64,000 nt of DNA from Candidatus Poribacteria bacterium (GCA_022826645.1 JAJDUM010000027.1:12033-76032); one strand, 5' to 3'. Counted from the first letter of the stretch, positions 41,511 to 59,491 are shown. Notes: generated by a model from the letters alone, not told the origin. Made by a program: numbers and translations.

Positions 41511-42656
41511 TTAGGTGTCTATTCGGTTGGCTTCAATATAATCCCAATCATACTCTATACCCAATCCGGGCTTCTGAGAGACGATCACATTACCTTCAGA
41601 ATCGATTGGATCTGTAATCGTTTTTAGCTCGGGCGAAGGCTGTTCATAATCAACACCGGGACGTAGGAGTCCCCTCTCGTAATACCGACAGGTAGCTTCG
41701 GGCGCAGCGCAGGCAAGATGGACGTGGGGTGCACCTGTGCCGTGCAGTTCGCACTGTATACCGTAAGCCTGACAAAGATTGATTAACTTCCAGCAACCGG
41801 TGATCCCACCATAGAAGATGTCGATACGCATCATGTCGGACGCCCCCTGTAGTATCCACTCCGCTCGGCTGAACACGCCGCCGGGGACGTGTTCCGGGGA
41901 ACAGATGGCGATATCCACCTCGCGGGTGAGTCGCCGGTACGCTTCGACACGGGTCTCAATCATAGGGTGCTCCAACCAGTAGTAATCGAGTTTCTCCAAC
42001 TCTCGCCCCACCCAGATCGCTTCATCCAAGGTATAAACACCGAACGGGTCAAGCATCAGCACCATATCATCCCCTACCGCGTCGCGCACTGCTTTGCATA
42101 CCTCGACATCTTCCTTTGGGAAGCCCGGGAGCTGCGGTGCAGGCTCCTCGGTGTGTGGGTTCCAGCAGATGTAGGCATGGACTTTGTATGCCTTATAGCC
42201 TTTCGCTTTACAAGCTTTCGCGTGCTCGGCATAAACTTCGGGACCACCTAAGTTGGGAAAAGTACTTGCATAGGCTCGGACCTTATCACGTGCCCCACCC
42301 AAGAGTTGGTAGACCGGGACGCCAGCCTTGTTACCCAATAGGTCCCACAGTGCGCAATCAGCTATCCCCATCTCACCCTCCGACGGCCTATGACTGAAAG
42401 TGGACATCTGGTCCATCCAGTGCCAGATCTGCTCCCGGTGTAATGGGTTTTCGCCCAAGATGAGTGGCTTGATGACCCCCTCCATTGTGGCTTTGTCACC
42501 CCCAAGCATGTGTCCGTTGATACCTTCGTCAGTAGAAATCTTGGTGATTGAACCGATACTCTCCACTTCATCTCCCCAGACACCATACCCCCACTTGGTC
42601 GGGTGCCCCCGGGTCGTTGTCCGAAACTGAATGACCTCCACATCAGTTATTTTCAT
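41511..42656 (-). CDS. enolase-superfamily enzyme (mandelate racemase/muconate lactonizing family)
   Basis: Barrel-domain metal ligands ('MLDPFG', 'WLEHP'). Confidence 0.85.
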   Translation of the reverse strand: MKITDVEVIQFRTTTRGHPTKWGYGVWGDEVESIGSITKISTDEGINGHMLGGDKATMEGVIKPLILGENPLHREQIWHWMDQMSTFSHRPSEGEMGIADCALWDLLGNKAGVPVYQLLGGARDKVRAYASTFPNLGGPEVYAEHAKACKAKGYKAYKVHAYICWNPHTEEPAPQLPGFPKEDVEVCKAVRDAVGDDMVLMLDPFGVYTLDEAIWVGRELEKLDYYWLEHPMIETRVEAYRRLTREVDIAICSPEHVPGGVFSRAEWILQGASDMMRIDIFYGGITGCWKLINLCQAYGIQCELHGTGAPHVHLACAAPEATCRYYERGLLRPGVDYEQPSPELKTITDPIDSEGNVIVSQKPGLGIEYDWDYIEANRIDT

Positions 42657-43242
42657 GTTTTTCCTCCTCAGATAGCGGCGGCTTGGAAGTTCAAGACTGC
42701 CTCTTTTTCCGTGCTTTATCCGTGAGACAAAATCGTAGTAAGAATATAAGTCGTATGATATACTGGATACACCGATTTGTCGACAGGAAACGTATCTTGA
42801 TCCAAGTTGATTGCAAGGTTAGTCCCCTTATTCCCCTGTCCCGCCAGTTTGGGATTTCGCTTATGCAGAACAAGCAGAGGGACAGTGATATCGGTTTATC
42901 ATCAGGTACAGGAAGTCCCTCCTACAAGCCCCTCAACCTGCGGGAAGAGAGGCGATTCGATCTGAATCACGGACTAAACAGATGAAGCGGATAACGCGGA
43001 TAAGAATGCGTAAAACGTGATGCGTGAAAGCAGATTGTAATGTATAGGGTTCATTAGTTCAATCAACCAATGTAGCTCTAGAGGGCGACATGTAGGTGAT
43101 TTTAACTTATATAGGACTTACGTACTTGAACACGCAAAGCTTTGTAGTTCGGTGATTCATCACCGCAGTACGCCATTTCCAACGCCCGATGAATCCCCGA
43201 TAAATCGGGATTAAGAAACGGGCAACTACAGTAAGGTCTTAG

Positions 43243-43302
43243 GTTTGTAGTAGCGCAATTCATTGCGCGTCCGGACGGGCGATAAATCGCCCTACTACAA
43301 AC
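43243..43302 (+). repeat. double-hairpin repeat (family B) gtttgtagtagcgcaattcattgcgcgtccggacgggcgataaatcgccctactacaaac
   Basis: A near-identical copy at 58851-58912. gtagtag/ctactac arms flank two internal palindromes. Confidence 0.75.
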
Positions 43303-43316
43303 TGAACTGCGTAACT

Positions 43317-43488
43317 CCTATTATAGTAAAGTTTAGAATTAATTGAACACTCTGTACCGGCGAGGTTAGGAAACCTCGCCTACCGCGGATGGAAAAATCC
43401 GGGCTCTCACCCCGGTAGGTGCGGTTTCTAACCGCACGGCACGGGACAGAACATGGGCAGCGAAAGTGTCTATCTGTTTTTAGAATCC
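43317..43488 (-). repeat. family-A modular intergenic repeat, inverted copy (left boundary of defense island)
   Basis: It is the reverse complement of 57686-57851. It shares 'ccggtacag..ttgaattaattctaaactttactataat', the 'gtgcggtttctaaccgcac' hairpin and the 'gtgtctat..tttttagaat' end. Confidence 0.75.
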
Positions 43489-43504
43489 ACTATAATTAAA
43501 ATTA

Positions 43505-44731
43505 ATGAGAATCACAATGCCAGATTTTACAGACAAAGAATTGCTACAAATCGTCGAATTCGGCGAAGCGGACCGCGTTGAGTTGAAGGAATCTTTGTCC
43601 GGCAGTGCTACGGAAAGAATCAGGGAAGCCGTATGTGCGTTTGCCAACGATCTGCCACGCCACCAAAAACCGGGCTTGGTTTTCGTGGGGGTGAGAGACG
43701 ACAAAACCATTACAGGTCTATCGGTCACGGACGAGTTGCTCCAGCAGTTGGCTGATATGAAAACCGATGGGAATATTGTGCCGCCGCCCTCGTTGAACGT
43801 TGAAAAGCGCGTGCTGCAAGGTAAAGAGATTGCCGTCGTCACGGTACAACCCTCCGACTCGCCGCCGGTTCGATTTAGAGGTGCTATTTATATCCGTACC
43901 GGCCCGCGTCGAGGCATCGCTACAGCACAGGATGAAAGGATTCTCAACGAAAAGCGGCGATATGGAGATGTCCCCTTCGACCTACACCCCATCCTTGCAT
44001 CGGGCATCTCCAATCTTAACCTCGCCCGGTTCGAGAATGAATATCTGCCACAGGCTGTTACCGCCGAGATCCTGGAAGCCAATGATCGCACTTCCGAAGA
44101 ACGACTTGTCGCAACGAAGATGATTGCCCCGGGCGATGAACGAATCGCGACGGTATTGGGAGTACTAGTGATCGGCAGAAACCCACAAGATTTTCTTCCA
44201 GGTGCTTACGTGCAGTTCCTCAGAATTGATGGTAACGCATTAACCGATAATATTCTTGACAGCGAAGAGATACGCGGCGCAATCCCAGAACTCCTCCGCC
44301 GTTTGGATGAGAAGCTAATCGCTCACAATCGTACTGCTGTTGATTTCACAACCAGCGTCCTTGAACAACGGACGGAACTTTATCCCATCCCAGCGTTACA
44401 ACAGATCACCCGGAATGCCGTTATGCACAGAACCTACGAAGCAACCCATGCGCCGATTCGTGTGTCTTGGTTCAATGACCGCATTGAGGTTTTTAGTCCC
44501 GGTGGCGCGTTCGGGGTGATAACGGAGGCAAATTTCGGACAGCCCGGACTAACCGATTATCGCAACCCCAATCTGGCGGAGGCGATGAAGAATCTCGGTT
44601 ATGTGCAACGTTTTGGCGTGGGAATACCGACCGCGAAAAGACTCCTGACCGAGGCAGGGCACTCGGAACCGGAATTTAAAATTAACGACAATTACGTGGT
44701 CGTTACCATAAAAGCAGCGCAAAAATCCTGA
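43505..44731 (+). CDS. Schlafen/AlbA_2 DNA-binding domain + HATPase_c_4 (RecG-C-terminal-like) protein, defense-island associated putative regulator
   Basis: N-terminal 'ADRVELKESL...FANDL' (AlbA_2 E..K motif). C-terminal 'RNPNLAEAMKNLGYVQRFGVGI' (HATPase_c_4). Confidence 0.72.
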   Translation: MRITMPDFTDKELLQIVEFGEADRVELKESLSGSATERIREAVCAFANDLPRHQKPGLVFVGVRDDKTITGLSVTDELLQQLADMKTDGNIVPPPSLNVEKRVLQGKEIAVVTVQPSDSPPVRFRGAIYIRTGPRRGIATAQDERILNEKRRYGDVPFDLHPILASGISNLNLARFENEYLPQAVTAEILEANDRTSEERLVATKMIAPGDERIATVLGVLVIGRNPQDFLPGAYVQFLRIDGNALTDNILDSEEIRGAIPELLRRLDEKLIAHNRTAVDFTTSVLEQRTELYPIPALQQITRNAVMHRTYEATHAPIRVSWFNDRIEVFSPGGAFGVITEANFGQPGLTDYRNPNLAEAMKNLGYVQRFGVGIPTAKRLLTEAGHSEPEFKINDNYVVVTIKAAQKS

Positions 44732-44737
44732 GAGGAG

Positions 44738-45742
44738 ATGGCAATGCCCGTTCCAGTGCTAACGTTCTTCAACAATAAAAGCGGTGCTGGCAAGACATCC
44801 CTTGTCTATCATCTGGCGTGGATGCTATCCGATATGGATTATCAAGTGCTCGCTTGTGACCTCGATCCGCAGGCGAACCTCACCCGCATGTTTATCAATG
44901 AGGAACGTCTAGAAATACTGTGGCCTGACGATGGAGAGAGGAAAACCATCTATAATGCCCTCCAACCGCTTTTGGACGGGACCGGAGACATTGAGCAACC
45001 TTACCTAGAACGGATAGCACCGAAGTTGAGCCTCATCGTAGGGGATCTCTCGTTATCCGCTACCGAAGATGAATTTTCGAGCCAATGGCAAGCGTGTCTT
45101 GACCGTCGCCCACGTGCTTTCCGTGTGATTTCAGCACTATGGCGCATTTTACAAACAGCAGCGAACGATAGTGGTGCTGAGATTGTCTTGGTAGATGTGG
45201 GGCCCAATCTAGGGGCTTTGAATAGAGCGGTGTTGGTTGCGACGGATTACGTTATCGTTCCGCTTGGAACAGATCTGATTTCACTTCAAGGACTGCGGAA
45301 CCTTGGTCCGATGCTACGAGATTGGCACAGTGGATGGAAAGATAGATGCGACCGCAACCCCATCCCTGACCTATGTATACCCAATGGATGGATTCAACCC
45401 ATCGGCTATCTGGTACGGCAACCTGATATCCGTTTGAATCGCCCTATAACGGTTGATGACAAATGTTTCAACCGTATGCCAGAGGAATATGCCCGAAACC
45501 TACTAGGCGATAACAATGGCCCCTATCCTGAGACACCGGCACAAGATGAAAAACACGCCCTCGCTATTGTCAAGCACTATCGAAGCCTAGTACCGATGGC
45601 ACAGGAGGCACGAAAGCCCATGTTCCATCTCACTCCGGCCGATGGGGCCATCGGCAGCCATGCCGCCGCCGCCAATGGGGCTCGTGCGGATTTCAAGGCT
45701 TTGGCTGAGAAGATAATCGCAAGGATTGAACTTGGGATATGA
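44738..45742 (+). CDS. ParA/MinD-family ATPase
   Basis: Deviant Walker A 'NNKSGAGKTS' and 'ACDLDPQANL'. It is 334 aa, with a C-terminal extension. Confidence 0.82.
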   Translation: MAMPVPVLTFFNNKSGAGKTSLVYHLAWMLSDMDYQVLACDLDPQANLTRMFINEERLEILWPDDGERKTIYNALQPLLDGTGDIEQPYLERIAPKLSLIVGDLSLSATEDEFSSQWQACLDRRPRAFRVISALWRILQTAANDSGAEIVLVDVGPNLGALNRAVLVATDYVIVPLGTDLISLQGLRNLGPMLRDWHSGWKDRCDRNPIPDLCIPNGWIQPIGYLVRQPDIRLNRPITVDDKCFNRMPEEYARNLLGDNNGPYPETPAQDEKHALAIVKHYRSLVPMAQEARKPMFHLTPADGAIGSHAAAANGARADFKALAEKIIARIELGI

Positions 45743-45795
45743 ACCAATGAACTAATGAACTAATGAACCAAAACAACCTGAGATAGGTATAAATT

Positions 45796-48700
45796 ATGTC
45801 CAATCGTAACACCCGAATCCGAGACAATCACGATCGTGGAACGGTCGGCGATTTTCTGAAAGCCAACATCGAAAACGGTTCGGCACTCTCAGTTGTATCG
45901 GCATACTTCACAATCCACGCCTTTGAAGGACTCAAAGAACATCTGTGGAAAATTGACGGCCTTCGATTCCTGTTCGGTGAACCCGACTTTATCAAAAATC
46001 TCGACGCAAGGGACACCGATCCGAAAGCCTTCAAAATTGAGGACGAGGGGTTGCAGCTTGACCAGACGCTTCAACAGAGACCGATTGCAAAAGCGTGCGC
46101 TGAGTGGATAGACAAGAAGGTGGAGATTAAGTCAACCCGACAATCGAATCTACTCCATGGGAAAATGTATCACATCGCCAACAACGACGCAGAAAAAGCC
46201 ATCATGGGCAGTTCTAATTTTACCGTGCAGGGACTCGGGTTGAGTCAGTCCAACAATAACATTGAGCTCAACTTAGAGGTGGAGAACGACCAAGACCGTC
46301 GGGACCTGAAAGCGTGGTTTGATGACCTCTGGAACGACGATAAACGGGTCGAAGATGTCAAGAAAAAGGTAATTGACAGGTTAGAGAAGCTGGGGGACGA
46401 TCAGGCACCAGAGTTCATCTATTACAAGACCCTTTACGAGTTGTTCCGGGATGAATTAGAAACCCGCATGAACAACGAGCAGAAAATAGAGGACACGCAC
46501 CTATACGACACACAAATTTGGGATACGTTGTACGCCTTTCAGAAAGATGGTGTAAAAAGCGTCATCGCCCGTCTGTTGCGTCACAACGGCTGCATCCTCG
46601 CTGATAGCGTGGGATTGGGCAAGACCTACACAGCGTTGGCGGTTATCAAGTTCTTTGAATTAAGGAATGAGCGTGTACTGGTGTTGTGTCCCAAAAAACT
46701 GCGCGAAAACTGGGCACTATATCCAGTGTATTACAGTCAACTCAACAACCCGTTCGAGGAAGACAAATTCGGCTACTCGCTGCTATCGCATACCGACCTA
46801 TCCCGCTACGAAGGCGACGCCGACGGCACCGGTTTGGAGGGGTTTAACTGGAGTAATTTTGACTTGGTGGTGATCGACGAATCGCACAACTTCCGCAACG
46901 ACACCAAACCCACCCTTGATGATGCGGGTAATATCACCCGCCACAGTCGCTACACACGGTTGTTAGAGGAGGTTATCAAGGAGGGCGCCCAAACGAAGGT
47001 GCTGATGCTTTCAGCGACGCCGGTCAATACGTCCCTCATTGACCTGCGGAATCAGATCTACCTGATGACCGGAAAGCGCGAAGAGGTCTTCCAGAAAAGT
47101 TTGGGGATCAGCAATATCCGCGCTTTGTTGGGGCAGGCACAAAAGGAGTTTAAGGCATGGGAAGATGATAAGGACAGTGGTAGAGATAAATCGAAATTGC
47201 TGGCTAAATTGGGAGCCGACTTCTTCCAGTTACTCGGCGGCGTTTCTATCGCCCGCTCTCGACGGCACATTGAGACTTTCTACGCCGATGAAATCGATAG
47301 AATCGGCGAGTTCCCCGAACAACTGAAACCGGAAAACCATCACCCACCCACCGACCTGACCGGCGCACTCTCCTATAAATATTTGGCGGATCAGATAGAG
47401 AAATTCTCCCTGTCTGTCTACACGCCGTCCAGTTACGTCATCGGTGAAGCAGCAAAACAGCGATTGGCACAAGAGAAACAGGACTTCCGTTTCAACCAGT
47501 TGGACCGTGAGAAGTTCCTGATTGGAATGATGCAGACCAACTTTCTCAAGCGTCTGGAGAGTTCCGCACACTCCCTCACAGAAACGCTCCAACGCACAAT
47601 CGGCAAAATTGACACCTTGTTGGAAAAGATCGAACGTTATGAACAAAACCAGCAGATGCCGGAAACAGAAAGTGACCGCCTCGCAGAGACCGACATCCTT
47701 CCGGAGGACGACGAAGACGATGAGGAGTTTCTGGTAAATAAGGCGCGTTACCCCTATCACTTGGGAGAATTGGATTGCGTCCGTTGGAAAGAAGATCTCA
47801 TAAAGGACAAAGGGACGTTGGGGGAGGCGTTGGAGAGCGTCAAAGGGATCACGCCGGAGCGAGACGGCAAACTTCAAGCGATTAAGGCGCATATTCGCGA
47901 CAAGGCAGCACACCCCCCGACCGACAAGGACGGAGAGATCAATCGCAAGCTCTTAGTATTCACCACCTTCAAGGACACGGCGGAGTACCTCTATGATAAC
48001 CTCTCGGATCTGGCAGCGGAACTGAACCTGAAGGTGGCGATGGTCTCCGGTGACGTGACGCGCACCCAATCCCGACCAAACAACTTCAACGCCATCCTCA
48101 CCAATTTCGCGCCACGAGCCCGGGGACGCGCCGATAACGACGGCGATGAAATTGACCTGCTAATCGCCACCGATTGCATATCGGAGGGACAAAATCTACA
48201 GGATTGCGACACGGTGCTGAACTATGACATCCACTGGAATCCGGTGCGTATCATCCAACGCTTCGGCCGTATTGACCGCATCGGCAGCCGCAACCTCTCG
48301 GTGCGAATGATTAACTATTGGCCCACCGAGGATATGGAGGTCTATCTGCGCCTGCAAAGCCGTGTCGAGGCTCGCATGGCACTCGCGGACGCGGCGGCAA
48401 CCGGCAGTGAGGACCCGTTGAACGAATCGGCTTATGAACAAGCCCAAATGGAACTGAATTTCCGCGACCAGCAGCTGAAACAACTGCGCGAAGAGGTGTT
48501 AGATTTCGACGACCTCTCCGACGGGGTTGTTCTGAGCGATTTTACGCTCGACTACTTCTTCACCCAACTATTGCGGTATCTGGAAAAGAACAAAAAGGAG
48601 TTGGAAGCGGCACCCAACGGCGTGTATGCTGTCACCCACGATGAAAGCCATCCGACAGAAACCGGGGTCATCTTTTTTCTCCGCCAGCGGAATGCCAACA

Positions 48701-49089
48701 CAGATATACAGAGAAAAACAGCCAGTCCTATCCACCCCTTTTATGCGGTCTATATCCGCAACAGTGACGACATCCGCTACGGTTGTGCAAACACCAAACA
48801 GGTGCTCGATCTGTTTGAATCGGCGGCGGTCGGTAAGATCGATCCGTTGCATGACCTATGTATCCAGTTTGACACCGAAACCCAAAATGGCAAGGACATG
48901 ACGCTCTACAACAAACTATTGAAAACGGTCATCGCTCACATCAGCAGAGCGCACACAACAACACAAACCAGAAATCTGAAGCGTGGGGGTCCACGCGACT
49001 TAAAACTAACTCCGAGATCCGAAACCCCCAGAGACACCAGCGATTTTGAGTTAGTAACGTGGCTGGTTATCACAACCCCGCAATCATAG
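45796..49089 (+). CDS. PLD-family (single HKD) nuclease domain fused to SNF2-family helicase
   Basis: The N-terminal 'HGKMYHIANND...GSSNFTVQG' is an HxK...GSxN motif. Helicase motifs 'DSVGLGKT', 'VVIDESHNFRN', 'LSATPVNT' and 'QRFGRIDRIG'. Confidence 0.85.
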   Translation: MSNRNTRIRDNHDRGTVGDFLKANIENGSALSVVSAYFTIHAFEGLKEHLWKIDGLRFLFGEPDFIKNLDARDTDPKAFKIEDEGLQLDQTLQQRPIAKACAEWIDKKVEIKSTRQSNLLHGKMYHIANNDAEKAIMGSSNFTVQGLGLSQSNNNIELNLEVENDQDRRDLKAWFDDLWNDDKRVEDVKKKVIDRLEKLGDDQAPEFIYYKTLYELFRDELETRMNNEQKIEDTHLYDTQIWDTLYAFQKDGVKSVIARLLRHNGCILADSVGLGKTYTALAVIKFFELRNERVLVLCPKKLRENWALYPVYYSQLNNPFEEDKFGYSLLSHTDLSRYEGDADGTGLEGFNWSNFDLVVIDESHNFRNDTKPTLDDAGNITRHSRYTRLLEEVIKEGAQTKVLMLSATPVNTSLIDLRNQIYLMTGKREEVFQKSLGISNIRALLGQAQKEFKAWEDDKDSGRDKSKLLAKLGADFFQLLGGVSIARSRRHIETFYADEIDRIGEFPEQLKPENHHPPTDLTGALSYKYLADQIEKFSLSVYTPSSYVIGEAAKQRLAQEKQDFRFNQLDREKFLIGMMQTNFLKRLESSAHSLTETLQRTIGKIDTLLEKIERYEQNQQMPETESDRLAETDILPEDDEDDEEFLVNKARYPYHLGELDCVRWKEDLIKDKGTLGEALESVKGITPERDGKLQAIKAHIRDKAAHPPTDKDGEINRKLLVFTTFKDTAEYLYDNLSDLAAELNLKVAMVSGDVTRTQSRPNNFNAILTNFAPRARGRADNDGDEIDLLIATDCISEGQNLQDCDTVLNYDIHWNPVRIIQRFGRIDRIGSRNLSVRMINYWPTEDMEVYLRLQSRVEARMALADAAATGSEDPLNESAYEQAQMELNFRDQQLKQLREEVLDFDDLSDGVVLSDFTLDYFFTQLLRYLEKNKKELEAAPNGVYAVTHDESHPTETGVIFFLRQRNANTDIQRKTASPIHPFYAVYIRNSDDIRYGCANTKQVLDLFESAAVGKIDPLHDLCIQFDTETQNGKDMTLYNKLLKTVIAHISRAHTTTQTRNLKRGGPRDLKLTPRSETPRDTSDFELVTWLVITTPQS

Positions 49090-49165
49090 CTGTAGGAGGG
49101 ATTTCCGAATTCCGATATATCGTTCAGGATTGAAGATGGGAAAACAAAAAACGGGAAGCGGATCT

Positions 49166-49611
49166 TTAGCCCCAACGGTGCGACAGGTTTATAGCTGTGG
49201 GAGGGGCATCCTTGCCCCGATCTCCGTGCGCTCCCAAGCCCCAGCGGGGCGGCATGTGTTGGAGTGATGCGTGATGCGTAAATAGTTCATTGGTTTAATT
49301 CTTGTCTGAATCAGGATTTGCAGGATTAAAGAATTTACAGGATAGAAAACGAAACGTGAAACGGGATGTGCGTTGGTTCATTTAGCACCAGAGAGGCGAC
49401 ATGTTTATAGCCGGGTGATAGGACCCTTCTTCCAAGCCCCAGCGGGGCGACATGTGCCATTTGTCTGAATCGCAGATTAAAACGGATTTAACGGATTTAA
49501 CGGATAAGGCAAAGAAAATGGGAAAATCAGCTTTTAGCCCCAGCGGGGCGACATGTTTATAGTACGCGGAATACGCAAATAACCAAAGCCCCAGCGGGGC
49601 GACATGTTAGA
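49166..49611 (+). repeat. cluster of REP-like hairpin repeats, unit ~ 'agccccagcggggcgacatgt(ttatag)' (stem GCCCC/GGGGC, loop AGC), 5-6 copies with irregular spacing
   Basis: Copies at 49166, 49236, 49392, 49434, 49535 and 49586. Inverted copies at 59111, 59157, 60722 and 60767. Confidence 0.75.
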
Positions 49612-49680
49612 ACTTATACAGTTCAGGTTGTAGGGAACAACGATCGTTGTTCCCTACGGACATAACAAGGGATAAAGCAC

Positions 49681-52600
49681 ATGACCAACGAAGAAATCAG
49701 AAAGAAGGAAGAAATCGAATCCGCCTTGGCTGCGATGATTGATGGCGATTTTTTGGAAACCGCAAATAACCTACTTGAGGTGTTAGATTACCACGCGCCA
49801 CTTACTGAGGAACTTCTGGAAACGGTGGATAACTTTATTCAGGAATACCCGGCTGAAAATGAAAACACCAAGACGGAACAAGAATTCCGTGAGAATGCCA
49901 AATCAATAGAATTAGTATCTCAAGTTGGGAGCGATGGAATTGCTGACAGGCAGCCAGACCGCTTGGAGTCAAAAACCTTCGACGGGGGACTTATACAGAG
50001 TTTTGTTTTCTGTGCTGTCGAATTAAAAGATAACGACTACTCCCGGAGCAAATACGCCCAATTCACACGAGAGATCAACAAACGGCTCCCCCTTGCGACT
50101 GTGGTGTTTTTTCGGGTTCAAGACCGTTTAACCATAGGTTTTGTCGGTCGCCGCCAACACAAGCGTGACCCAAATCTCGACGTACTGGAACAGGTCAGCC
50201 TAATCAAGGACATTCGACTAAATAAGCCACACCCGGCGCATAGAGAGATTCTGTATGAACTTTCGTTGGACGAATGCGCGAAGTGGATGGACGCCAAGGA
50301 CCAACCGGAAAACTTCGATGGCTTGCTCGCGGCGTGGCTTGCCCGACTGGACACCTCCGAACTCAACAAACGCTTCTTCAACGAACTCGCCAACTGGTAT
50401 TTCTGGGCTGTCGATCAGGTGACGTTCCCAGACGACGCGGGGGAAGACGTCGAAGTCCGCAACGCCACCAGCGTCATCCGCCTGCTCACACGACTAATTT
50501 TTGTGTGGTTCGTCAGGGAAAAGGGACTGGTGCCGGACGCGCTCTTTAACCCAAACGATCTCGATGACATCCTCAATAATCTCGATCCGGGGGAAAGCAC
50601 CTACTACAAAGCAATCCTTCAAAACCTGTTCTTTGCCACGCTCAATCAGGAGATGAACACCGAGCAGTATCCCAATAACCGCAAATTTCGCGGTGAGGGA
50701 CGGCAGCACTACAACATCACATCGTTCTATCGTTACAAAGACTGTTTCATTGACCCGGACGATGCCTTACGACAGTTTGAGGCAATCCCTTTTCTGAATG
50801 GCGGGCTATTTGAGTGCTTGGATGGGCAATCTAAAGATGATCCTACAGAGATTCTACGGATTGACGGCTTTTCCGACAGGAACGACATTCCGCTGCATGT
50901 CCCTAATGAACTGTTCTTTTCGGAGGAACGGAGCGTTGACCTCAATGCCGCTTACGGCACAAGAGGGAAACGACATAAAGTACGCGGCCTGATTCACATT
51001 CTCAGCAGCTACAAATTCACGATTGCCGAGAACACCCCGATTGAGGAGGAGGTCGCTCTGGACCCCGAACTGCTCGGCAAGGTGTTTGAAAACCTCCTCG
51101 CCGCCTACAACCCCGAAACCAAAGTAACCGCCCGCAAACAGACCGGCTCCTACTACACCCCCCGCGAGATTGTCAACTACATGACCGACGAGTCGTTGAT
51201 TGCCTATCTAAAAAATGAGCTCATCCGCCCCGTTGAGTCCGATGCACAAAAAGCGGAGATCGAGAAGAAACTTCGCGGGCTGCTCGCCTATAACGATGCC
51301 CCAAACCCATTCGATGAGGCGGAAACCGAGGTGCTAATCAAAGCCATTGACGCCCTCAAGATCCTTGATCCCGCCTGCGGTTCGGGCGCGTTTCCGATGG
51401 GGGTGCTGCATAAACTGGTATTCATTCTCGGAAAATTGGATCCGCGCAATGAGCAGTGGAAGCAACGGCAAATCGCCAGAGTCGAAAGTACCATTGAGAG
51501 GGCGGAGGACATTGACGATAGCACATTTCGGGAAAATACTATCCGCGAACTTGAGGGGGAAATTGAGAACATCAACGAGGCATTTGAACGGAACGAACTG
51601 GACTACGGGCGGAAACTCTACCTGATTGAAAACTGCATCTACGGCGTGGACATTCAGCCCATCGCCACCCAGATTGCCAAGCTCCGCTTCTTTATCTCCC
51701 TCATCGTAGATCAGCAGATTGACGGATCACGGGAGAATCACGGGGTACGCCCGCTGCCGAACCTGGAAACGAAGTTTGTCGCGGCGAATACGCTCATCGG
51801 CGTGGATAAACCGTTGCAAACACAAATCCGCAGCCCGCAGGTTGACCGCAAGGAGAAGGAACTGGAGGATGTGCGCCGCAGACACTTCACCGCTCGCACC
51901 CCAAGCACCAAAGCCAAATACCGTGCCCTCGATGCCCAAATCCGCACCGAAATTGGTGAATTGCTCAGAGACCTCGGCTTTCCCGATGAGACGACTGAGA
52001 AAATCGCTAATTGGGACCCCTACAATCAGAACGCAAGTGCGGATTGGTTCGATTCGGAATGGATGTTTGGGGTCAGGGATGGGTATGATATTACGATTGG
52101 CAATCCGCCGTATATTCAATTGCAAAGCGATGGTGGACAATTAGGGCGTTTGTATGTACCGTGCAATTTTGATAGCTTTATCAGGACAGGGGATATTTAT
52201 TGCCTGTTCTATGAAAAAGCGAATCAACTGTCGAAAAAGAGCGGGCATGTCTGTTTTATTACTTCTAACAAATGGATGCGCGCAGCGTATGGCAAAAAGC
52301 TGAGAGATTATTTTATCTCACATACCCAACCGATTCAACTGCTAGATATGGGACCAGATGTATTTGATGCCACCGTGGACACCAACATCCTGCTACTGCA
52401 AAACGCCCTATCCGATGGCAGTACACACCTCCCCTTCACAGCTACAACTATCAAATCTGATTTCGACAAACATGCTGGCGACATAGCCAAATACCTGAAG
52501 GATAACGGTGTGACTATGGAACTGCCCTCTAAAGGCGAACCGTGGGCGATACTCTCACCGACTGAACTTGCCCTGAAACGCAAGATAGAAGAGGTTGGCA

Positions 52601-53409
52601 AACCGCTCAAAGACTGGGATATAAACATCTATCGTGGAATTGTAACAGGTTTCAATGAAGCATTTGTCATAGACGAAGCCAAGCGTGAAGAATTGATAGC
52701 GGTTGACCCAAAGTCAGCCAAAATCATCAAACCACTTCTGCGCGGACGAGACATCAAACGCTATCATGCCCAATGGGTGGGATTGTATTTGATAAGTACT
52801 TTTCCTGTGCTTGATTTGAACATTGACGATTATCCTGCGGTTAAAAGTCATCTTCTGGAGTTTGGCAGAGATCGATTGGCACAGGTTGGTAAAACACTTG
52901 CTGACGGCACTAAATCTCGTAAGAAGACAGGAAATAAATGGTTTGAGTTACAAGATCAAATCGCTTACTACCCCGAGTTTGCAAAGGAGAAAGTTATTTA
53001 TCCAGAGATAACAAAGTTTCTCCCATTTGTTTACGACCCAAATGAGTTCTACATCAATAATAAGAGTTTTATCATTACGGGTGGAAATTATTTGAAATAT
53101 CTTACAGGATATCTTAACTCTCGGATCGCAGCAAAGTGGATTCGTGAAAACTGTCCAGAATTGGGTGATGACAGAAGAGAGTTGAGAAAAGTATTCTTTG
53201 AGAATATTTTAATTCCTCCTGTTACGGAAGCGAACCAACACCTTGTCACGCAGATAGAAACGCGGGTGGACCAAATCCTCGACGCCAAAGACACGAATCC
53301 AGACGCGAATGTATCCGAACTTGAAAAAGAGATTGATCAGATAGTATACTTGTTATACGATCTCACCGATGAAGAAATTAAAATTGTGGAGGCTGCGGAA
53401 ACTGTCTGA
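49681..53409 (+). CDS. Type IIG/IIL restriction-modification enzyme (PglX/DrmMI-like N6-adenine methyltransferase with putative N-terminal PD-(D/E)xK nuclease and C-terminal TaqI_C-type TRD)
   Basis: 'DPACGSGAFPMG' (motif I) and 'ITIGNPPYIQ' (motif IV NPPY). N-terminal 'DGG..FVFCAVELK' (D...ExK). The C-terminal target-recognition domain is homologous to the next gene's C-terminus. Confidence 0.85.
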   Translation: MTNEEIRKKEEIESALAAMIDGDFLETANNLLEVLDYHAPLTEELLETVDNFIQEYPAENENTKTEQEFRENAKSIELVSQVGSDGIADRQPDRLESKTFDGGLIQSFVFCAVELKDNDYSRSKYAQFTREINKRLPLATVVFFRVQDRLTIGFVGRRQHKRDPNLDVLEQVSLIKDIRLNKPHPAHREILYELSLDECAKWMDAKDQPENFDGLLAAWLARLDTSELNKRFFNELANWYFWAVDQVTFPDDAGEDVEVRNATSVIRLLTRLIFVWFVREKGLVPDALFNPNDLDDILNNLDPGESTYYKAILQNLFFATLNQEMNTEQYPNNRKFRGEGRQHYNITSFYRYKDCFIDPDDALRQFEAIPFLNGGLFECLDGQSKDDPTEILRIDGFSDRNDIPLHVPNELFFSEERSVDLNAAYGTRGKRHKVRGLIHILSSYKFTIAENTPIEEEVALDPELLGKVFENLLAAYNPETKVTARKQTGSYYTPREIVNYMTDESLIAYLKNELIRPVESDAQKAEIEKKLRGLLAYNDAPNPFDEAETEVLIKAIDALKILDPACGSGAFPMGVLHKLVFILGKLDPRNEQWKQRQIARVESTIERAEDIDDSTFRENTIRELEGEIENINEAFERNELDYGRKLYLIENCIYGVDIQPIATQIAKLRFFISLIVDQQIDGSRENHGVRPLPNLETKFVAANTLIGVDKPLQTQIRSPQVDRKEKELEDVRRRHFTARTPSTKAKYRALDAQIRTEIGELLRDLGFPDETTEKIANWDPYNQNASADWFDSEWMFGVRDGYDITIGNPPYIQLQSDGGQLGRLYVPCNFDSFIRTGDIYCLFYEKANQLSKKSGHVCFITSNKWMRAAYGKKLRDYFISHTQPIQLLDMGPDVFDATVDTNILLLQNALSDGSTHLPFTATTIKSDFDKHAGDIAKYLKDNGVTMELPSKGEPWAILSPTELALKRKIEEVGKPLKDWDINIYRGIVTGFNEAFVIDEAKREELIAVDPKSAKIIKPLLRGRDIKRYHAQWVGLYLISTFPVLDLNIDDYPAVKSHLLEFGRDRLAQVGKTLADGTKSRKKTGNKWFELQDQIAYYPEFAKEKVIYPEITKFLPFVYDPNEFYINNKSFIITGGNYLKYLTGYLNSRIAAKWIRENCPELGDDRRELRKVFFENILIPPVTEANQHLVTQIETRVDQILDAKDTNPDANVSELEKEIDQIVYLLYDLTDEEIKIVEAAETV

Positions 53410-53465
53410 ATCACGGATTAGACGGATTTAGCGGATAGCGCGGATTTTTTAATCCGTGTCCTTCG

Positions 53466-53507
53466 TTAATCCGCGATAATCATCGATTCTGACAGTGAGA
53501 GGATTGG
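53466..53507 (+). repeat. family-D repeat 'taatccgcgataatca(t/g)cgattctgacagtgagaggattg'
   Basis: Copies at 58694-58736 and 58939-58974. The flanking 'tctgaatcacgga' is also at 42961 and 58981. Confidence 0.7.
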
Positions 53508-53589
53508 AATTGTGGAGGAAGCTATCCAACTGAAAGTGGGGTTGGGTTAAATAATATTTGACAGGTACGGAATTAAGGAGACCAAGGGA

Positions 53590-56253
53590 ATGAATAAAGT
53601 TTTTATCTCCTATGTTAGGGAAAATATAGAAATAGTTGACCGGCTCTACCAAGAACTCACAGCACACGGGATCGAAGTCTGGCTGGATCGGGAAAATATT
53701 GATCCAGGATCTCGCTGGGAGCAAGCAATTCGGAGAGCTATTCAACAAGGAGCTTTTTTCATTGCCTGTTTCTCCGAGGAATATCATAATCGTGGTCAGA
53801 CCTACATGAACCAAGAACTTACGTTCGCAATTGATGAGCTGCACCAACGCTCCCCTGATCAAATATGGTTTATTCCCGTAAAATTAAACGAATGCGAGAT
53901 TCCTGACCGTGACATTGGTGGCGGGAAAACCTTACAAGCCCTACAGTATGTCAATCTCTATGAAAACTGGGACGATAGTATCCAACGTATTCTTAAAGTC
54001 ATTCAACCCGGATTATCTGAACCTGTTATAAACGCAAATGCTGTAGAGCAATCCGAAACGCAAGTTCAGCCACAGGAGGCAAACGCCTATTTCGATCAAG
54101 GCAATGTTTACCAAAGCAAGGGTGATTATGACCATGCCATCGAAGCTTTTAACACAGCAATAGAACTCAAACCTGATTTTGCCGAAGCCTATACCAATCG
54201 CGGTCTAGCTCACCAGAACAAAGGTGATTTTGACCTTGCCTTTAAAGACCACGCCAAAGCGATAGATCTGAATCCCGATTATGCCGAAGCCTATTTCAAT
54301 CGCGGTGGTGCTCATAAGAGCAAAAACAATTATGTTCATGCCCTTGTAAACTTTAACACAGCAATAGAACTCAAACCCGATTTTGCCGGGGCCTATAACC
54401 ATCGTGGCGTAGTTTACCTTGATAGAGGTGATGATGATTGTGCCATCGCAGATTTTACCAGAGCGATAGATCTGAATCCCGATTTTATTGCCGAAGCCTA
54501 TACCAATCGCGGACTTGCTTACCATAAAAAAGGTGAAATTGACAATGCCCTCAAAGACTATACCAAAGCGATAGACCTGAATCCTAATTTTGTTGCCGAA
54601 GTCTATTACAATCGCGGGTCCGCTTACGGGAACAAAGGGGATTTTGACCGCGCTATTGGGGATTTGAACAAAGCAATAGAGCTCAAACCCGATGATGCCA
54701 AAGCCTATAGCAATCGTGGAGTTGCTTACCACGGCAAGGGCGATTTTGACCATGCTATTACAGACTATACCAAAGCAGCAAAACTCAACCCCGATTCTAC
54801 TGAAATCTATTACAATCGCGGAGTTGCTTACGGGGCAAAAGGCGATTTTGACCGCGCTATTATAGATTATACCAAAGCGATACAACTCAACCCCGATTCT
54901 CCCATAGCCTATAATAATCGCGGGGTAGCTTACCACGGCAAAGGCGATTTTGACCGCGCTATTACAAACTATACCAAAGCGATAAACCTGAATCCCGTTT
55001 TTGTCAATGCCTATTGCAATCGTGGTGAGACGTGGTTACACCTAGAAGAGTGGGATAAAGCCAGGGCAGACCTGAGTGTCGCCAGAAAGATGGGGATAGA
55101 TATCGTTGCTTTATTTCATAATGAATACAAGAACGTTGAGGCGTATGAACGGGCAAATCGTGTTAAATTGCCCGAAGATATCGCCGCGATGCTGACGCAG
55201 CGGCGGCGGAGCCGTTTCCCCAAAACCGAAAAGTTCTTGAGTGCTGACGGCACCCCCCTTGAATCGCCCGATATATTGAATCTGCTTGCAAAACTCCGCA
55301 ACGCGGGACCACCCCTGTCGCAATACCTTCAGACGCGCCCCACTTTTGGACTCAAGACCGGTGCGAGCGGAGCCTTTGTCGTGGATAGTGCGACGCGAGA
55401 TCAACTCATTGCGGATCACCCTGCATCTGCTGATATTTTGAAACCGTTTCTGCACGGACGGGACATCAGACGCTGGGGGGTGGAGAGCCCCGATTCATGG
55501 TTAATTTTTGTCCACCGTCGCATAGAGATAGACCGTTATCCTGCCATCCGAAAACACCTGGAACAATATAGATCGGTCTTGAGCAAAAGGGCGGGTAAAC
55601 AGAAATGGTACGAACTGCCAACCACCAAAAAAGGCACCGAGCGCTTTACACAAACAAAACTCATTTGCCCAAATAACTACAATCACCAAACCTTCGCTGT
55701 TGATACGGACGGGTTTTACTGTGGAGATACATGCTACCTGATTCCGACTGAGGAGACATGGTTATGCGGTCTCCTCAATTCCCGCGCTGTGGAGTGGTTC
55801 TATTCGCAGGTGTCAAAACAGTTGACGGGGGATTATCTTCGGGCGCGCAGCCGCCATATCCAAGAAATCCCTATCCCCGAGCTCACGTCAACACAGAAAT
55901 CCCTAATCGGCAAAATCGTTGATTATCTCATCTTTCTTCAGGGACAACCGACGACGAGGAGCGGGGATTTAGCACATGCCCGCGATGCTGTGATGCTCGG
56001 GTATTTTGAGCGGATCATTGACGGACTGGCTTATGAGTCCTATCTACGTGAAGAACTGCATCAAGGGGAAAAACAGTTCTTCAACCCGTTGTTGGATGAG
56101 CGGTTGCCGCAACTTGAAGAAATTCGGGGCGATAAAATGGCCGCGTTACAAGAAATCTTCGAGCGATTGTATGAAAGAATGCATCCGATCCGGCGAAACC
56201 TTTTCTTTCTGAACAGTGTAAAACCGATCCGCATCATTGAGGACAGAACGTGA
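53590..56253 (+). CDS. TIR-domain protein with ~10 TPR repeats and a C-terminal TaqI_C-like DNA target-recognition domain (candidate defense effector/sensor)
   Basis: N-terminal 'KVFISYVREN...GIEVWLD...IDPGSRW...FIACFSEEY...MNQELTFAI' is a bacterial TIR_2 pattern including a candidate catalytic Glu. Then 34-aa 'AEAYxNRGxAYxxKGDFDxAIxDYTKAIxLNPD' repeats. The C-terminal 'FGLKTGASGAFVVD...ILKPFLHGRDIRRW...YPAIRKHL...KWYEL...LLNSRAVEWF' aligns with the TRD of the upstream RM enzyme. Confidence 0.8.
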   Translation: MNKVFISYVRENIEIVDRLYQELTAHGIEVWLDRENIDPGSRWEQAIRRAIQQGAFFIACFSEEYHNRGQTYMNQELTFAIDELHQRSPDQIWFIPVKLNECEIPDRDIGGGKTLQALQYVNLYENWDDSIQRILKVIQPGLSEPVINANAVEQSETQVQPQEANAYFDQGNVYQSKGDYDHAIEAFNTAIELKPDFAEAYTNRGLAHQNKGDFDLAFKDHAKAIDLNPDYAEAYFNRGGAHKSKNNYVHALVNFNTAIELKPDFAGAYNHRGVVYLDRGDDDCAIADFTRAIDLNPDFIAEAYTNRGLAYHKKGEIDNALKDYTKAIDLNPNFVAEVYYNRGSAYGNKGDFDRAIGDLNKAIELKPDDAKAYSNRGVAYHGKGDFDHAITDYTKAAKLNPDSTEIYYNRGVAYGAKGDFDRAIIDYTKAIQLNPDSPIAYNNRGVAYHGKGDFDRAITNYTKAINLNPVFVNAYCNRGETWLHLEEWDKARADLSVARKMGIDIVALFHNEYKNVEAYERANRVKLPEDIAAMLTQRRRSRFPKTEKFLSADGTPLESPDILNLLAKLRNAGPPLSQYLQTRPTFGLKTGASGAFVVDSATRDQLIADHPASADILKPFLHGRDIRRWGVESPDSWLIFVHRRIEIDRYPAIRKHLEQYRSVLSKRAGKQKWYELPTTKKGTERFTQTKLICPNNYNHQTFAVDTDGFYCGDTCYLIPTEETWLCGLLNSRAVEWFYSQVSKQLTGDYLRARSRHIQEIPIPELTSTQKSLIGKIVDYLIFLQGQPTTRSGDLAHARDAVMLGYFERIIDGLAYESYLREELHQGEKQFFNPLLDERLPQLEEIRGDKMAALQEIFERLYERMHPIRRNLFFLNSVKPIRIIEDRT

Positions 56254-57671
56254 GAATTACTGAGATTGAAATCAAAAACTTCAAAGCCTTTTATGGCACC
56301 TACCGAATCGACCTACGCAAGACTGGAAAGAACCTATTGGTTTACGGTGAAAATGGGAGCGGAAAATCGTCCCTGTATTTTGCGTTAAAGTTGTTCTTGG
56401 AATCCGGCGATAATCCTTCACATAGATTTGAAAACGATCAGAACATCTTTATCGGAGATCCGGGCTATATCAAGCTGTGTCTCCGCGCTGACCGGCGGTC
56501 AAATCAGATGACCTACGAATGGTCGGAGAGCGTTAGAGAGACGGATGACGAACTGATTATTGAGGCATCAAGGGCAAAGGGCTTCCTCGATTATAAGGAC
56601 CTTCTGGAGACGCACTACGTCCATCGTGAAAGTAATACTGTCAATGTATTCAATTTGCTGGTTGAGACACTCTTGGCAAACACCGTCAACCCCCGGACAA
56701 ATCGAACCCTTGCGCAGGATTGGGCTGTTATTCAGCCACCGTATCCACGCCGAAACGCAACAAGTCAAATTGCGGACCTTGAAAGCTGGATAGAGATTTT
56801 CAACACTGAATTAGCAAACAGATTAGCAGAGCTGCAGCCAAAAGTATCCGAAATCCTTGGCAAGTTTGGACACAACGTTGCCCTTAATTTCGATTTTCCG
56901 GGGGTTAAATATAACCGTGAGGACAGAACGCTTGATAATCAGGGGATTTTCCTAACGGTTGAGCTCTTCGATAGAAATATTCCCGAACATCACCGCTTCC
57001 TGAACGAAGCGAGGCTATCGGCAATCGCTATCGCTATCTACTTTTCGTCAATCCTGATTCAGCCAGAAGGTGCCCTGAAGATTCTCGCCTTAGATGATGT
57101 GCTGATCGGCTTAGACATGTCAAACCGACTGCCGGTGCTTGATATGCTAGCCGAGTATTTTTCAGACTACCAAATCTTTTTGACGACGTACGATAAGGCG
57201 TGGTATGAGATTGTCAGACAACGGACATCTGATGCCGATTGGGAATACACCGAATTCTATACTTCAGAGTCCAACGAACACGAGATTCCCATTCATGTGC
57301 AAGATAAGCCGTATCTTGAAAAGGCGAAAGTGTATTTTAACGACAACGACTACAAAGCCTGCGTCATCTACCTTCGCACCGCCTTTGAAGCAGCTATCAA
57401 GAAATTCTGCGATAGGAAAAACCTCCGAGTTAGATACCGTGAAAATCCGAAAGAACTACAAAGCAACGACTTCTGGGAACCGATAAAAAAGATGGAGTTA
57501 GACGATGGTACACCCTTTTTAGGGCAGGAGCTCATTGACGAGATTGAACTGTACCGAAGTATTATCCTAAACCCACTCAGCCATGCTCGTATTGTCCCCG
57601 TCGTCAAAAAGGAAGTTTCTGAAGCAATAGAAGCGGTGGAAAAACTTGAAGATAAATTAGCAGGAAATTAA
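56250..57671 (+). CDS. ABC/SMC-type (RecF/OLD-like) AAA ATPase, translationally coupled to the TIR-TPR-TRD gene
   Basis: Walker A 'GENGSGKSS', a signature-like 'EARLSAIAIA', Walker B 'ILALDDVLIGLD' and H-loop-like 'FLTTYD'. The start overlaps the upstream stop by 4 nt. Confidence 0.8.
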   Translation: MRITEIEIKNFKAFYGTYRIDLRKTGKNLLVYGENGSGKSSLYFALKLFLESGDNPSHRFENDQNIFIGDPGYIKLCLRADRRSNQMTYEWSESVRETDDELIIEASRAKGFLDYKDLLETHYVHRESNTVNVFNLLVETLLANTVNPRTNRTLAQDWAVIQPPYPRRNATSQIADLESWIEIFNTELANRLAELQPKVSEILGKFGHNVALNFDFPGVKYNREDRTLDNQGIFLTVELFDRNIPEHHRFLNEARLSAIAIAIYFSSILIQPEGALKILALDDVLIGLDMSNRLPVLDMLAEYFSDYQIFLTTYDKAWYEIVRQRTSDADWEYTEFYTSESNEHEIPIHVQDKPYLEKAKVYFNDNDYKACVIYLRTAFEAAIKKFCDRKNLRVRYRENPKELQSNDFWEPIKKMELDDGTPFLGQELIDEIELYRSIILNPLSHARIVPVVKKEVSEAIEAVEKLEDKLAGN

Positions 57672-57685
57672 AGGAGTGCTATAGC

Positions 57686-57851
57686 GGATTCTAAAAATAA
57701 ATAGACACTTTCGCTCCCCATGTTTGGTAGGCGCTGTTTCCAACTGCGCCGATGCGGTGCGGTTAGAAACCGCACCTACCGGGGTGATAGCCCGGATTTC
57801 CCCCCCCCCCCCGGTACAGAATGTCCAATTAATTCTAAACTTTACTATAAT
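57686..57851 (+). repeat. family-A modular intergenic repeat (right boundary of defense island), includes a 12-nt poly-C tract
   Basis: 'ggattctaaaaataaatagacac', 'gcggtgcggttagaaaccgcacc' and 'ccggtacagaatgtccaattaattctaaactttactataat'. It is the inverse of 43317-43488. Confidence 0.75.
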
Positions 57852-57859
57852 TACTGCCT

Positions 57860-58651: not shown

Positions 58652-58850
58652 TGCAGATTGCACCGTTTTAATTCCGCGTTATCCTTAAATCCGCGATAAT
58701 CAGCGATTCTGACAGTGAGAGGATTGTAGTGGTGTATCGGGGCAGGTCCCGATTTATCGGGATCCTCGCGTTGCGGGAGATGCCTCTCCCACGTCCAACG
58801 GCGTAGATAACGCAGATTTTTTGCATCGGTGTCCGCCGCACGGTTTCGTG

Positions 58851-58912
58851 GGTTTGTAGTAGCGCAATCCATTGCGCGTCCGGACGGGCGATAAATCGCC
58901 CTACTACGAACC
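58851..58912 (+). repeat. family-B double-hairpin repeat, second copy
   Basis: ~95% identical to 43243-43302. Confidence 0.75.
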
Positions 58913-59110
58913 AGAGCATTCTCAATCCGTGTAATCCCTGAATCCGCGATAATCAGCGATTCAGACAATGGGGGACACCGTCTGAATCACGGATCCTCAG
59001 GATAAGGCACGCAACGTCTCTTAATCCTGATAATCCTTTAATCCTGTAAATCTTGGTTCAGACAATATAGGTAATTTCCTCAATATATCAGGTATGATTC
59101 CAATGTAACA

Positions 59111-59184
59111 CATGTCGCCCCGCTGGGGCTTTGGGCTGTTTGGTGTGTAGCACTAGCTATAAACATGTCGCCCCACTGGGGCTA
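59111..59184 (-). repeat. two inverted REP-like hairpin units (acatgtcgccccgctggggc)
   Basis: Reverse complement of the 49.2-49.6 kb unit. Confidence 0.7.
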
Positions 59185-59459: not shown

Positions 59460-59491
59460 ACCATAAATTGACAGTAGAGAAGGAGATCCAG

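Follow-up and report, generated by a model that had tools for sequence, protein, structure and literature searches.

What does a protein that joins a nuclease fold to a DNA motor do beside an adenine methylase, and which subunit of such a pair cuts? The question is raised by an open reading frame (ORF) at positions 45796-49089 of a 64,000-nucleotide stretch of DNA from Candidatus Poribacteria bacterium (GCA_022826645.1 JAJDUM010000027.1:12033-76032), the whole of which is referred to here as the window. From the sequence alone, the original prediction was that this ORF encodes a phospholipase D (PLD) nuclease with a single HKD motif, fused to an SNF2 helicase and acting as a nuclease-translocase effector with a neighbouring PglX-like methylase. 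The gene probably encodes the restriction/translocase subunit of a two-gene, ATP-dependent defence module resembling restriction-modification (RM) systems, whose other gene is the methylase at 49681-53409.

A PLD domain fused to an SNF2 motor

ORF 45796-49089 (+ strand) begins with ATG and encodes a product of 1097 amino acids (aa). The start codon is correct, because alignments of homologues begin at residue 1. All the strings on which the prediction was based are present in the translation: HGKMYHIANND...GSSNFT at aa 121-143, VVIDESHNF at aa 358-366 and QRFGRIDRIG at aa 821-830. Pfam matches were judged against the gathering cut-off of each model. PLDc_2 was above its cut-off at aa 89-179 (E 3.9e-9, 36.9 bits against 27), as was RE_NgoFVII, the N-domain of PLD-type restriction nucleases, at aa 99-178 (25.8 bits against 23.8). 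Thus, in the profile search that had been proposed as a check, the N-terminus scores as a PLD/HKD domain. SNF2-rel_dom (37.5 bits against 24.9), ResIII (aa 245-410) and Helicase_C also passed (Table 1).

A sequence search of the PDB gave CHD1L, Snf2, Sth1 and RapA as top hits for the motor region, while aa 96-175 weakly matched the PLD restriction enzyme BfiI (2c1l). In the AlphaFold2 (AF2) model, the predicted local distance difference test score (pLDDT) was about 70 to 88 over most of the PLD-fold stretch, with a dip at aa ~61-90. The best PADLOC model was PDLC01075 ('C3a139, HKD+Snf2'; E 1.5e-109), aligned from aa 102 to 1051 with positions 94-921 of the 948 in the profile. ORF 45796-49089 therefore encodes a genuine PLD/HKD domain fused to an SNF2 motor.

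Conservation was counted over 79 aligned relatives of the helicase, which come from many phyla and share 43 to 93% identity. The histidine of HxK was present in all 79 and the lysine in 78, with a single arginine. Each of G, S, S, N and T in the GSSNFT motif was invariant (79/79), and the phenylalanine was found in 78/79. In the motor, GKT of Walker A, DESH, and Q, R, G, R, D and R of motif VI were kept in every relative, and the longer strings GLGKT, DESH, SATPVN (motif III) and QRFGRIDRIG all reached at least 76/79. The catalytic residues of both the nuclease and the ATPase are thus under purifying selection in these relatives.

Linkage to a methylase and a clade that has lost HxK

One genome per species was scanned, which gave 80 loci with helicase relatives in this same range of identity. 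The hosts were Poribacteria, Chloroflexota, Latescibacterota, Binatia, Verrucomicrobiota, Planctomycetota, Cyanobacteria, Bacteroidota, several proteobacterial classes and others. Related loci were searched with the window proteins, all of their ORFs were clustered, and linkage was scored where at least 3 kb lay downstream of the helicase gene (n = 67). Linkage was obligatory: a methylase homologue accompanied the helicase in 67/67 loci. It was directly downstream on the same strand in 61 of them by clustering and in four more by tblastn (divergent or longer versions), and just upstream in the remaining two. In 21 cases the two genes overlapped by 4 to 38 nucleotides, and gaps of ≤ 100 nucleotides were found in 37 of the 67 measured; the gap in most relatives was -38 to +85 nucleotides. 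Other genes were inserted between the two in 18 loci. The genes flanking the pair were unrelated from locus to locus; therefore, the pair is a mobile two-gene module. Examination of genomic context, also proposed as a check, thus placed the homologues in variable, island-like settings, always by an Eco57I-family methylase, and they are not housekeeping helicases.

The proteins closest to the helicase (76 to 93% identity) are from Candidatus Poribacteria assemblies. Next in order, at 56 to 65% identity (L008, L010-L019), are helicases mostly from metagenome-assembled genomes (MAGs) of Binatia, Latescibacterota, Chloroflexota/Dehalococcoidia, Caldilineaceae and Spongiisociaceae, several of which are typical sponge symbionts. 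Since the closest relatives outside Poribacteria sit in other symbiont phyla, this suggests that the pair is exchanged as a defence cassette within the sponge microbiome. For relatives in cultured Rhodoferax, Polaromonas and Pollutimonas, the annotation reads merely 'helicase-related protein'. The number of clusters at 50% identity reaching E ≤ 1e-30 against the helicase was 1527, a count that includes other SNF2-type relatives.

The methylase matched the Pfam profiles Eco57I (E 2e-34), TaqI_C and N6_Mtase. Its description as PglX-like stands in that it belongs to the same broad family as PglX and DrmMI; it is an orthologue of neither, being matched best by type IIG-like models and having a DUF4391-like domain at its N-terminus. 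Its DPACGSGAF and NPPY motifs are both intact, and GNPPY was conserved in at least 90% of 55 methylase homologues. The N-terminus is well conserved among homologues, and the target-recognition domain (TRD) is the most variable part of the protein (mean identity 24%). Three homologues matched DUF4391 (PF14335) below the Pfam threshold (E ~1e-5). An hhalign comparison of the 55 N-domains with seven sister-clade proteins at the DUF4391 position, six of them so annotated, gave a probability of 87.6% (E 3.5e-6) over 133 columns.

Pairwise identities in each part of the methylase were correlated with those of the helicase (Spearman). The coefficient was 0.67 for the N-domain, a value reached in none of 300 label permutations, and fell to 0.42 for the helical spacer, 0.34 for the methylase core and -0.08 for the TRD. 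This pattern of co-divergence would fit contact between the N-domain and the helicase, and free exchange of TRDs.

Truncated and split forms of the methylase were also seen. Many homologues of its N-terminus are just 400 to 800 aa long, even on megabase contigs, and the methylase is split into two ORFs at several related loci (L018, L022, L040, L068). These could reflect genuine loss of function, phase variation or sequencing frameshifts in MAGs built from long reads. At L019 (13259-21342) an insertion sequence (IS) with a DDE_3 transposase interrupts the methylase, of which TRD fragments remain.

Evidence on which subunit cuts comes from a sister clade carried on plasmids, where tblastn found 559 plasmid records with a full-length helicase at ~38% identity. 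Seven loci were opened (L002, L003, L004, L085-L088), from E. coli, Enterococcus, Methanomethylovorans, Desulforapulum, Aeromonas, Sulfitobacter and Acinetobacter; Listeria is also among the hosts. As in the window, helicases of full-length homology with intact SNF2 motifs accompany a DUF4391 module and an adenine methylase, often in overlapping genes. In contrast to the window, the helicase gene is followed in all seven loci by a free-standing DUF4391 gene, which often overlaps it, and by a short type III Mod-like methylase (~600 aa), and in five of the seven a DEAD/DEAH Res-like helicase comes next. Furthermore, HxK is replaced by Q-x-[F/L] in 7/7 sister-clade helicases. The clade lacking a Res-like subunit thus retains an active HKD motif, whereas the one that usually possesses such a subunit has lost it, which argues that the PLD domain is the nuclease of the window system. 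This contrast is the strongest comparative argument for that assignment. There is no other recognisable nuclease in the core pair.

In Acinetobacter gerneri the sister-clade cassette directly follows genes for TnsA, a Mu transposase, TniB and TniQ, and it may be Tn7-like cargo.

A predicted split restriction system and its competitors

Type ISP enzymes (LlaGI, LlaBIII) combine an Mrr-family nuclease, a superfamily 2 (SF2) ATP-dependent double-stranded DNA translocase, an NPPY gamma-class N6-adenine methylase and a TRD in one polypeptide. The same set of activities is predicted for the window pair, which is best read as a type ISP-like, ATP-dependent restriction system split in two, with the PLD-SNF2 protein as nuclease-translocase and its PLD domain replacing Mrr. 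The system differs from type ISP in being divided into two polypeptides, one a nuclease-motor and the other an adaptor-methylase-TRD. Its predicted nuclease has a PLD fold with one HKD motif instead of the Mrr/PD-(D/E)XK type, its motor is of SNF2 type and a DUF4391-like domain takes the position of the coupler.

In such a system the methylase-TRD would recognise a specific, probably asymmetric DNA site and methylate adenine there on host DNA. At unmethylated sites on incoming DNA, the DUF4391-like N-domain would recruit or license the PLD-SNF2 protein, so that physical interaction and control running from methylase to motor are both expected. The SNF2 motor would hydrolyse ATP and move along, or reel in, double-stranded DNA. 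As is known from Nuc and BfiI, one HKD domain supplies no more than half of an active site, and cleavage would therefore need two paired PLD domains. These could come together in a stable dimer, or when converging complexes meet, as expected by analogy with type ISP and type I enzymes, in which two motors and nucleases meet. An anti-phage phenotype would be predicted. The proposal of a nuclease-translocase effector acting with a modification enzyme is thus favoured by the conserved motifs and the constant linkage to the methylase, both of them read from sequence.

Several points weigh against this interpretation. The canonical aspartate of HxK(x)4D is missing from its usual position, which holds alanine or a variable residue (HGKMYHIA); this aspartate is not required in several members of the PLD nucleases. 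The window methylase itself had no Pfam match to DUF4391, and at the hhalign probability obtained its link to that family is only moderate. The gradient of co-divergence is also expected from mere physical linkage to the adjoining helicase gene and counts as weak support. Given the repeat-filled spacer of 590 bp between the helicase and methylase genes, which is atypical of the family, co-transcription of the two in the window is not assured. The AF2 model of the full-length helicase was poor (pLDDT 60.9, predicted template modelling score 0.42) and was used for no claim; therefore, no structural statement is made on PLD pairing or the C-terminal region. Structural matches of this model were generic (SF2, SNF2, RIG-I, RapA; template modelling score ~0.2) and were likewise unused. 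Finally, no experimental work on this two-gene clade was found in the literature.

Might the methylase cut by itself? If it were a complete type IIG enzyme with a cryptic N-terminal nuclease, the PLD-SNF2 protein would have only an accessory role, processing or degrading DNA once the first cut is made or broadening the target range. Among PADLOC models, the methylase matches those of REase_MTase_IIG best (E 1e-149), and it shares a helical spacer, an Eco57I/MmeI-type methylase core and a TaqI_C/MmeI_TRD domain with type IIG/IIL enzymes (Eco57I, MmeI, BpuSI). The AF2 model of its N-domain (pLDDT 82.8) is an alpha/beta core of about five strands, compatible with a divergent PD-(D/E)XK fold, and the PLD protein of class 1 DISARM, DrmC, is reportedly dispensable. 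However, where type IIG enzymes have an N-terminal PD-(D/E)XK nuclease, there is no conserved D/E-x-K in the N-domain here. The sole candidate position for ExK is variable (VEL, IAL, LKL, IGL, FPL), no nuclease profile in Pfam matched the domain and its model had no Foldseek match in the PDB below E 0.1. The domain resembles DUF4391 instead, which in the sister clade is a separate protein and is not annotated as a nuclease. Together with the strict retention of HKD in the clade of the window, where a Res-like subunit is absent, and its loss in 7/7 sister-clade helicases, this makes a self-sufficient type IIG methylase unlikely. The locus further differs from type IIG systems in encoding a separate nuclease-motor that is predicted to be ATP-dependent.

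It is also improbable that two independent systems merely travel together, the PLD-SNF2 protein being a stand-alone enzyme (type IV-like, or sensing ends or structures) and the methylase an orphan or part of something else. Stand-alone PLD-helicase restriction enzymes do exist, for example SauUSI (cited in PMC12839542), and both the spacer in the window and the intervening genes in 18 loci would be compatible with independence. On the other hand, co-occurrence in every testable locus, over phyla and a wide range of identity and with frequent stop/start overlaps, is not what independence would give. Nor is co-divergence of the methylase N-domain with the helicase, or the pairing of the same helicase family with DUF4391 and a methylase in the sister clade.

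There is little chance that the PLD domain is non-catalytic, serving in dimerization or DNA binding, with the protein acting as a motor only and cutting left to a variable accessory nuclease or replaced by a BREX-like block. The sister clade does keep the fold without HxK, the canonical aspartate is off its usual position and DUF1016/YhcG PD-(D/E)XK nuclease genes occur in eight related loci. However, an invariant histidine and GSSN, with lysine in 78/79 relatives from distant phyla, are hard to explain without catalysis, and accessory nucleases are present in just ~10% of loci. A housekeeping or regulatory role without defence (RapA-like transcription recycling, repair or epigenetic regulation) is very unlikely: although the solved structures most closely related to the motor are those of RapA and chromatin remodellers, the NCBIfam RapA model reached 40 bits (cut-off 576), a TRD-bearing methylase invariably accompanies the gene, its distribution is patchy with unrelated flanks, its nearest relatives outside Poribacteria are in other sponge-symbiont phyla, and related Poribacteria hold different cargo at the site.

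The split restriction system proposed here does not coincide with the defence systems to which its parts are most similar. The comparison originally made was with DISARM. Class 1 DISARM likewise has a PLD nuclease (DrmC), an SNF2 helicase (DrmD) and a large Eco57I-family adenine methylase (DrmMI) in one locus, and the DrmD and DrmMI models matched the window proteins weakly. Fusion of PLD and SNF2 sets the window locus apart, as had been pointed out. Membership of DISARM is rejected: neither DrmA (a DUF1998-associated helicase) nor DrmB was found when the neighbours were scanned with Pfam and PADLOC, and the helicase, with 148.6 bits against a cut-off of 610 for NCBIfam DISARM_DrmD, is no DrmD orthologue. 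BREX was rejected in the same way, since PglZ and BrxC were not found in the island by Pfam or PADLOC and the methylase, at 76.5 bits against a cut-off of 500 for BREX_1_MTaseX (PglX), is no PglX orthologue. The locus is thus neither DISARM nor BREX.

Type-2 BREX-related (BR)/Hma systems come closer, having an N-terminal HKD endoDNase fused to a Swi2/Snf2 helicase, together with an N6-methylase and RM-like logic (PMC12839542). Both of these components are present in the window and PADLOC HmaA gave a weak match (E 3e-27). However, what defines such systems is a DUF499 AAA+ ATPase together with a DUF3780 gene that stands alone (PMC12839542), and neither was matched by Pfam in the window proteins scanned, whose ATPases are ParA-like AAA_31 and SMC_N/AAA_23; membership was therefore rejected. 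MADS (methylation-associated defence system) was rejected as well. The one PADLOC match to it was a weak one between mad3 and the window ATPase (E 1.7e-11), with none for mad6-8, which are mandatory in its eight-gene operon; the MADS paper mentions no helicase, SNF2 or PLD component.

Fusion of HKD and SNF2 is itself already known, from PADLOC C3a139, CDD cd09178 and published surveys. The C3a139 model originates from cluster 139 of Shah et al. 2018, a family adjoining type III CRISPR loci (PMC6546367), and Milman et al. 2023 recorded type II RM genes with adjacent PLD (cd09178) and SNF coding sequences (PMC9881135). In ATP-dependent restriction enzymes of the CglI/NgoAVII type, a PLD/HKD nuclease depends on, or is fused to, an SF2 helicase-like motor (PMC5861437). 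PbeA of PbeABCD is a further precedent for an HKD nuclease-SF2 fusion (PMC10853773), and its PADLOC model gave a weak match (E 1e-13).

The island, its neighbouring module and wider significance

The helicase gene lies within a six-gene block, 43505-57671, with metabolic genes on either side (Table 1). Upstream are two accessory genes. The cluster of the first (AlbA_2-HATPase_c_4) is found again in 11 related loci in addition to the window, frequently placed between the two core genes, while the ParA-like ATPase is found in three related loci and adjoins an AlbA_2 gene in two. TIR/TPR proteins occur in 11 related loci, mostly of sponge symbionts. Such recurrent accessory genes are typical of defence and restriction loci.

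Table 1. Features of the six-gene island and their positions in the window
Feature	Position	Strand	Basis
PLD(HKD)-SNF2 helicase-nuclease gene	45796..49089	+	ORF list, translation, Pfam, PADLOC
N-terminal single-HKD PLD-fold domain, aa ~11-200	45826..46395	+	PLDc_2, RE_NgoFVII, weak BfiI match, AF2 model
HxK catalytic motif, H121-G-K123	46156..46164	+	conservation in 79 aligned relatives
GSSNFT, GSxN part of HKD motif, aa 138-143	46207..46224	+	conservation in 79 relatives
SNF2/ResIII ATPase lobe 1, aa 245-415	46528..47040	+	Pfam ResIII, SNF2-rel_dom
Walker A GLGKT	46612-46626	+	GKT conserved 79/79
DESH box	46876-46887	+	conserved 79/79
Helicase_C lobe 2, aa 715-830	47938..48285	+	Pfam Helicase_C, E 8e-16
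Motif VI QRFGRIDRIG	48256-48285	+	Q, R, G, R, D, R each 79/79
Helicase-methylase spacer with short dispersed repeats AGCCCCAGCGGGGCGACATGT (6 copies) and palindrome	49090..49680		sequence
Partner methylase, 1242 aa: DUF4391-like N-domain, helical spacer, gamma-class N6-adenine methylase, TaqI_C-type TRD	49681..53409	+	
DUF4391-like N-terminal domain of methylase, aa ~60-220	49858..50340	+	sub-threshold PF14335, hhalign, AF2
S-adenosylmethionine-binding motif DPACGSGAF, aa 563-571	51367..51393	+	translation, conservation line
Catalytic NPPY motif, aa 808-811	52102..52113	+	translation, conservation line
TaqI_C target-recognition domain, aa 1017-1167	52729..53181	+	Pfam TaqI_C, E 4e-10
Schlafen AlbA_2 + HATPase_c_4 accessory gene	43505..44731	+	Pfam
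ParA-like AAA_31 ATPase accessory gene	44738..45742	+	Pfam
TIR-TPR-TRD protein, 887 aa	53590..56253	+	Pfam TIR_2, TPR, TaqI_C/MmeI_TRD
SMC_N/AAA_23 ABC-type ATPase, 473 aa	56250..57671	+	Pfam

Comparison of window positions 41511-60517 with other Poribacteria loci (L001, L005, L020) revealed other cargo at the same chromosomal site. It follows genes for a giant F5/8-CBM9 protein, MoeA and an MR_MLE-type dehydratase, and has an alpha/beta-hydrolase gene on its other side. The helicase-methylase pair is constant, while TIR-TPR genes, a Fic gene or the AlbA_2/ParA genes vary, so that this site behaves like a defence hotspot.

Downstream of the methylase are genes for a TIR-TPR-TRD protein and an SMC_N-type ATPase, which overlap by four nucleotides. 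The former terminates in a TaqI_C-type TRD and a tail, and this TRD has just 29% identity to that of the neighbouring methylase. It aligns with the TRD-plus-tail of longer methylases that directly precede the ATPase in 11 related loci, where a homologue of the ABC/SMC-type ATPase comes right after such a methylase. The TIR-TPR-TRD architecture is also found in a second Poribacteria genome (L005:19698-22676; 74% identity). On a metagenome contig (L089:4612-8510) an FRG-TPR-TRD protein with 53% identity overlaps, again by four nucleotides, an ATPase 68% identical to that of the window, and there is no helicase or methylase core within 6 kb of this pair. The TIR-TPR-TRD and ABC ATPase genes are probably a separate module and not part of the helicase-methylase pair. 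The combination of an effector-TPR-TRD protein and an ABC ATPase resembles a two-gene module that stands by itself and whose effector domains are exchangeable; its apparent origin is the 3' end of a methylase-ATPase operon.

A TRD shufflon was considered, in which the TRD of the TIR-TPR gene would be a silent cassette that switches the specificity of the methylase by recombination (compare the inversion loci in PMC9881135). This was rejected on account of the common strand, the low identity of the two TRDs, an intact ORF that is conserved in L005 and the lack of a methylase in L089. Inverted TRD copies in L019 are the result of the IS insertion that disrupts its methylase, and not a shufflon.

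Repeats are frequent in and around the island. AGCCCCAGCGGGGCGACATGT has ten matches in the window (≤ 3 mismatches; none expected), located at 49160-49610 (+), 59110-59183 (-) and 60724-60793 (-), and a perfect palindrome, GTAGGGAACAACGATCGTTGTTCCCTAC, lies at ~49630. An inverted repeat of ~175 bp (43320-43494 and 57680-57851), 91 to 96% complementary in three blocks, brackets the six genes; its left arm ends 10 nucleotides before the AlbA_2 gene and its right arm begins 9 nucleotides past the stop codon of the ATPase gene. Some of its elements, a GGTGCGGTTnGAAACCGCACC hairpin and a promoter-like box, GTGTCTAT...TTTTTAGAAT, are found again upstream of ORF 59468 as well as in L020. Transposon ends were not established, as the repeat is built of modules that recur at other intergenic sites; it may be a dispersed intergenic module instead. 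A 69-nucleotide repeat is present at 53446, 58666 and 58919, and one of 66 nucleotides at 43237 and 58846. A scan of 43000-58500 for promoters and terminators gave no excess over shuffled sequence. Just beyond the right arm lies ORF 57860-58651, in whose product TPR repeats are joined to a GxxExxY domain (TIGR04256, E 1e-34).

A broader interpretation can be put forward tentatively, although the odds are somewhat against it: PLD-SNF2 helicases and DUF4391, the latter as a coupler of motor and methylase, may form a distinct and widespread class of ATP-dependent restriction systems with two forms. In form A, found at this locus and at least 80 others, a type IIG-like methylase-TRD would carry DUF4391 as a fused domain, and the nuclease would be an active HKD. 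Form B would have a free DUF4391, a type III-like Mod, usually a Res-like helicase, and a dead PLD domain. The neighbouring TIR/FRG module might then also be new, with TIR (or FRG)-TPR-TRD and the ABC ATPase re-using a restriction-type TRD to aim an abortive-infection effector. Literature searches on DUF4391, and on PLD with SNF2 and type IIG, turned up no functional work.

At face value, this is an annotation that proves correct and not a discovery, as HKD-SNF2 fusions by methylases are already in databases and surveys. Of somewhat higher interest than the fusion are the idea of a DUF4391 adaptor, the contrast of active and dead HKD motifs, and the neighbouring TRD-guided effector module. For DUF4391 this is a first functional hint, that it may be an adaptor between motor and methylase. 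The contrast between the clades is a natural experiment pointing to which subunit cuts. The two-gene family is large and spread over many phyla, and it would be a compact model for the licensing of a motor-nuclease by a methylase. In the genome of this sponge-symbiont Poribacteria, the gene most likely encodes the half that cuts and translocates in an uncharacterized but catalogued RM-like defence system.

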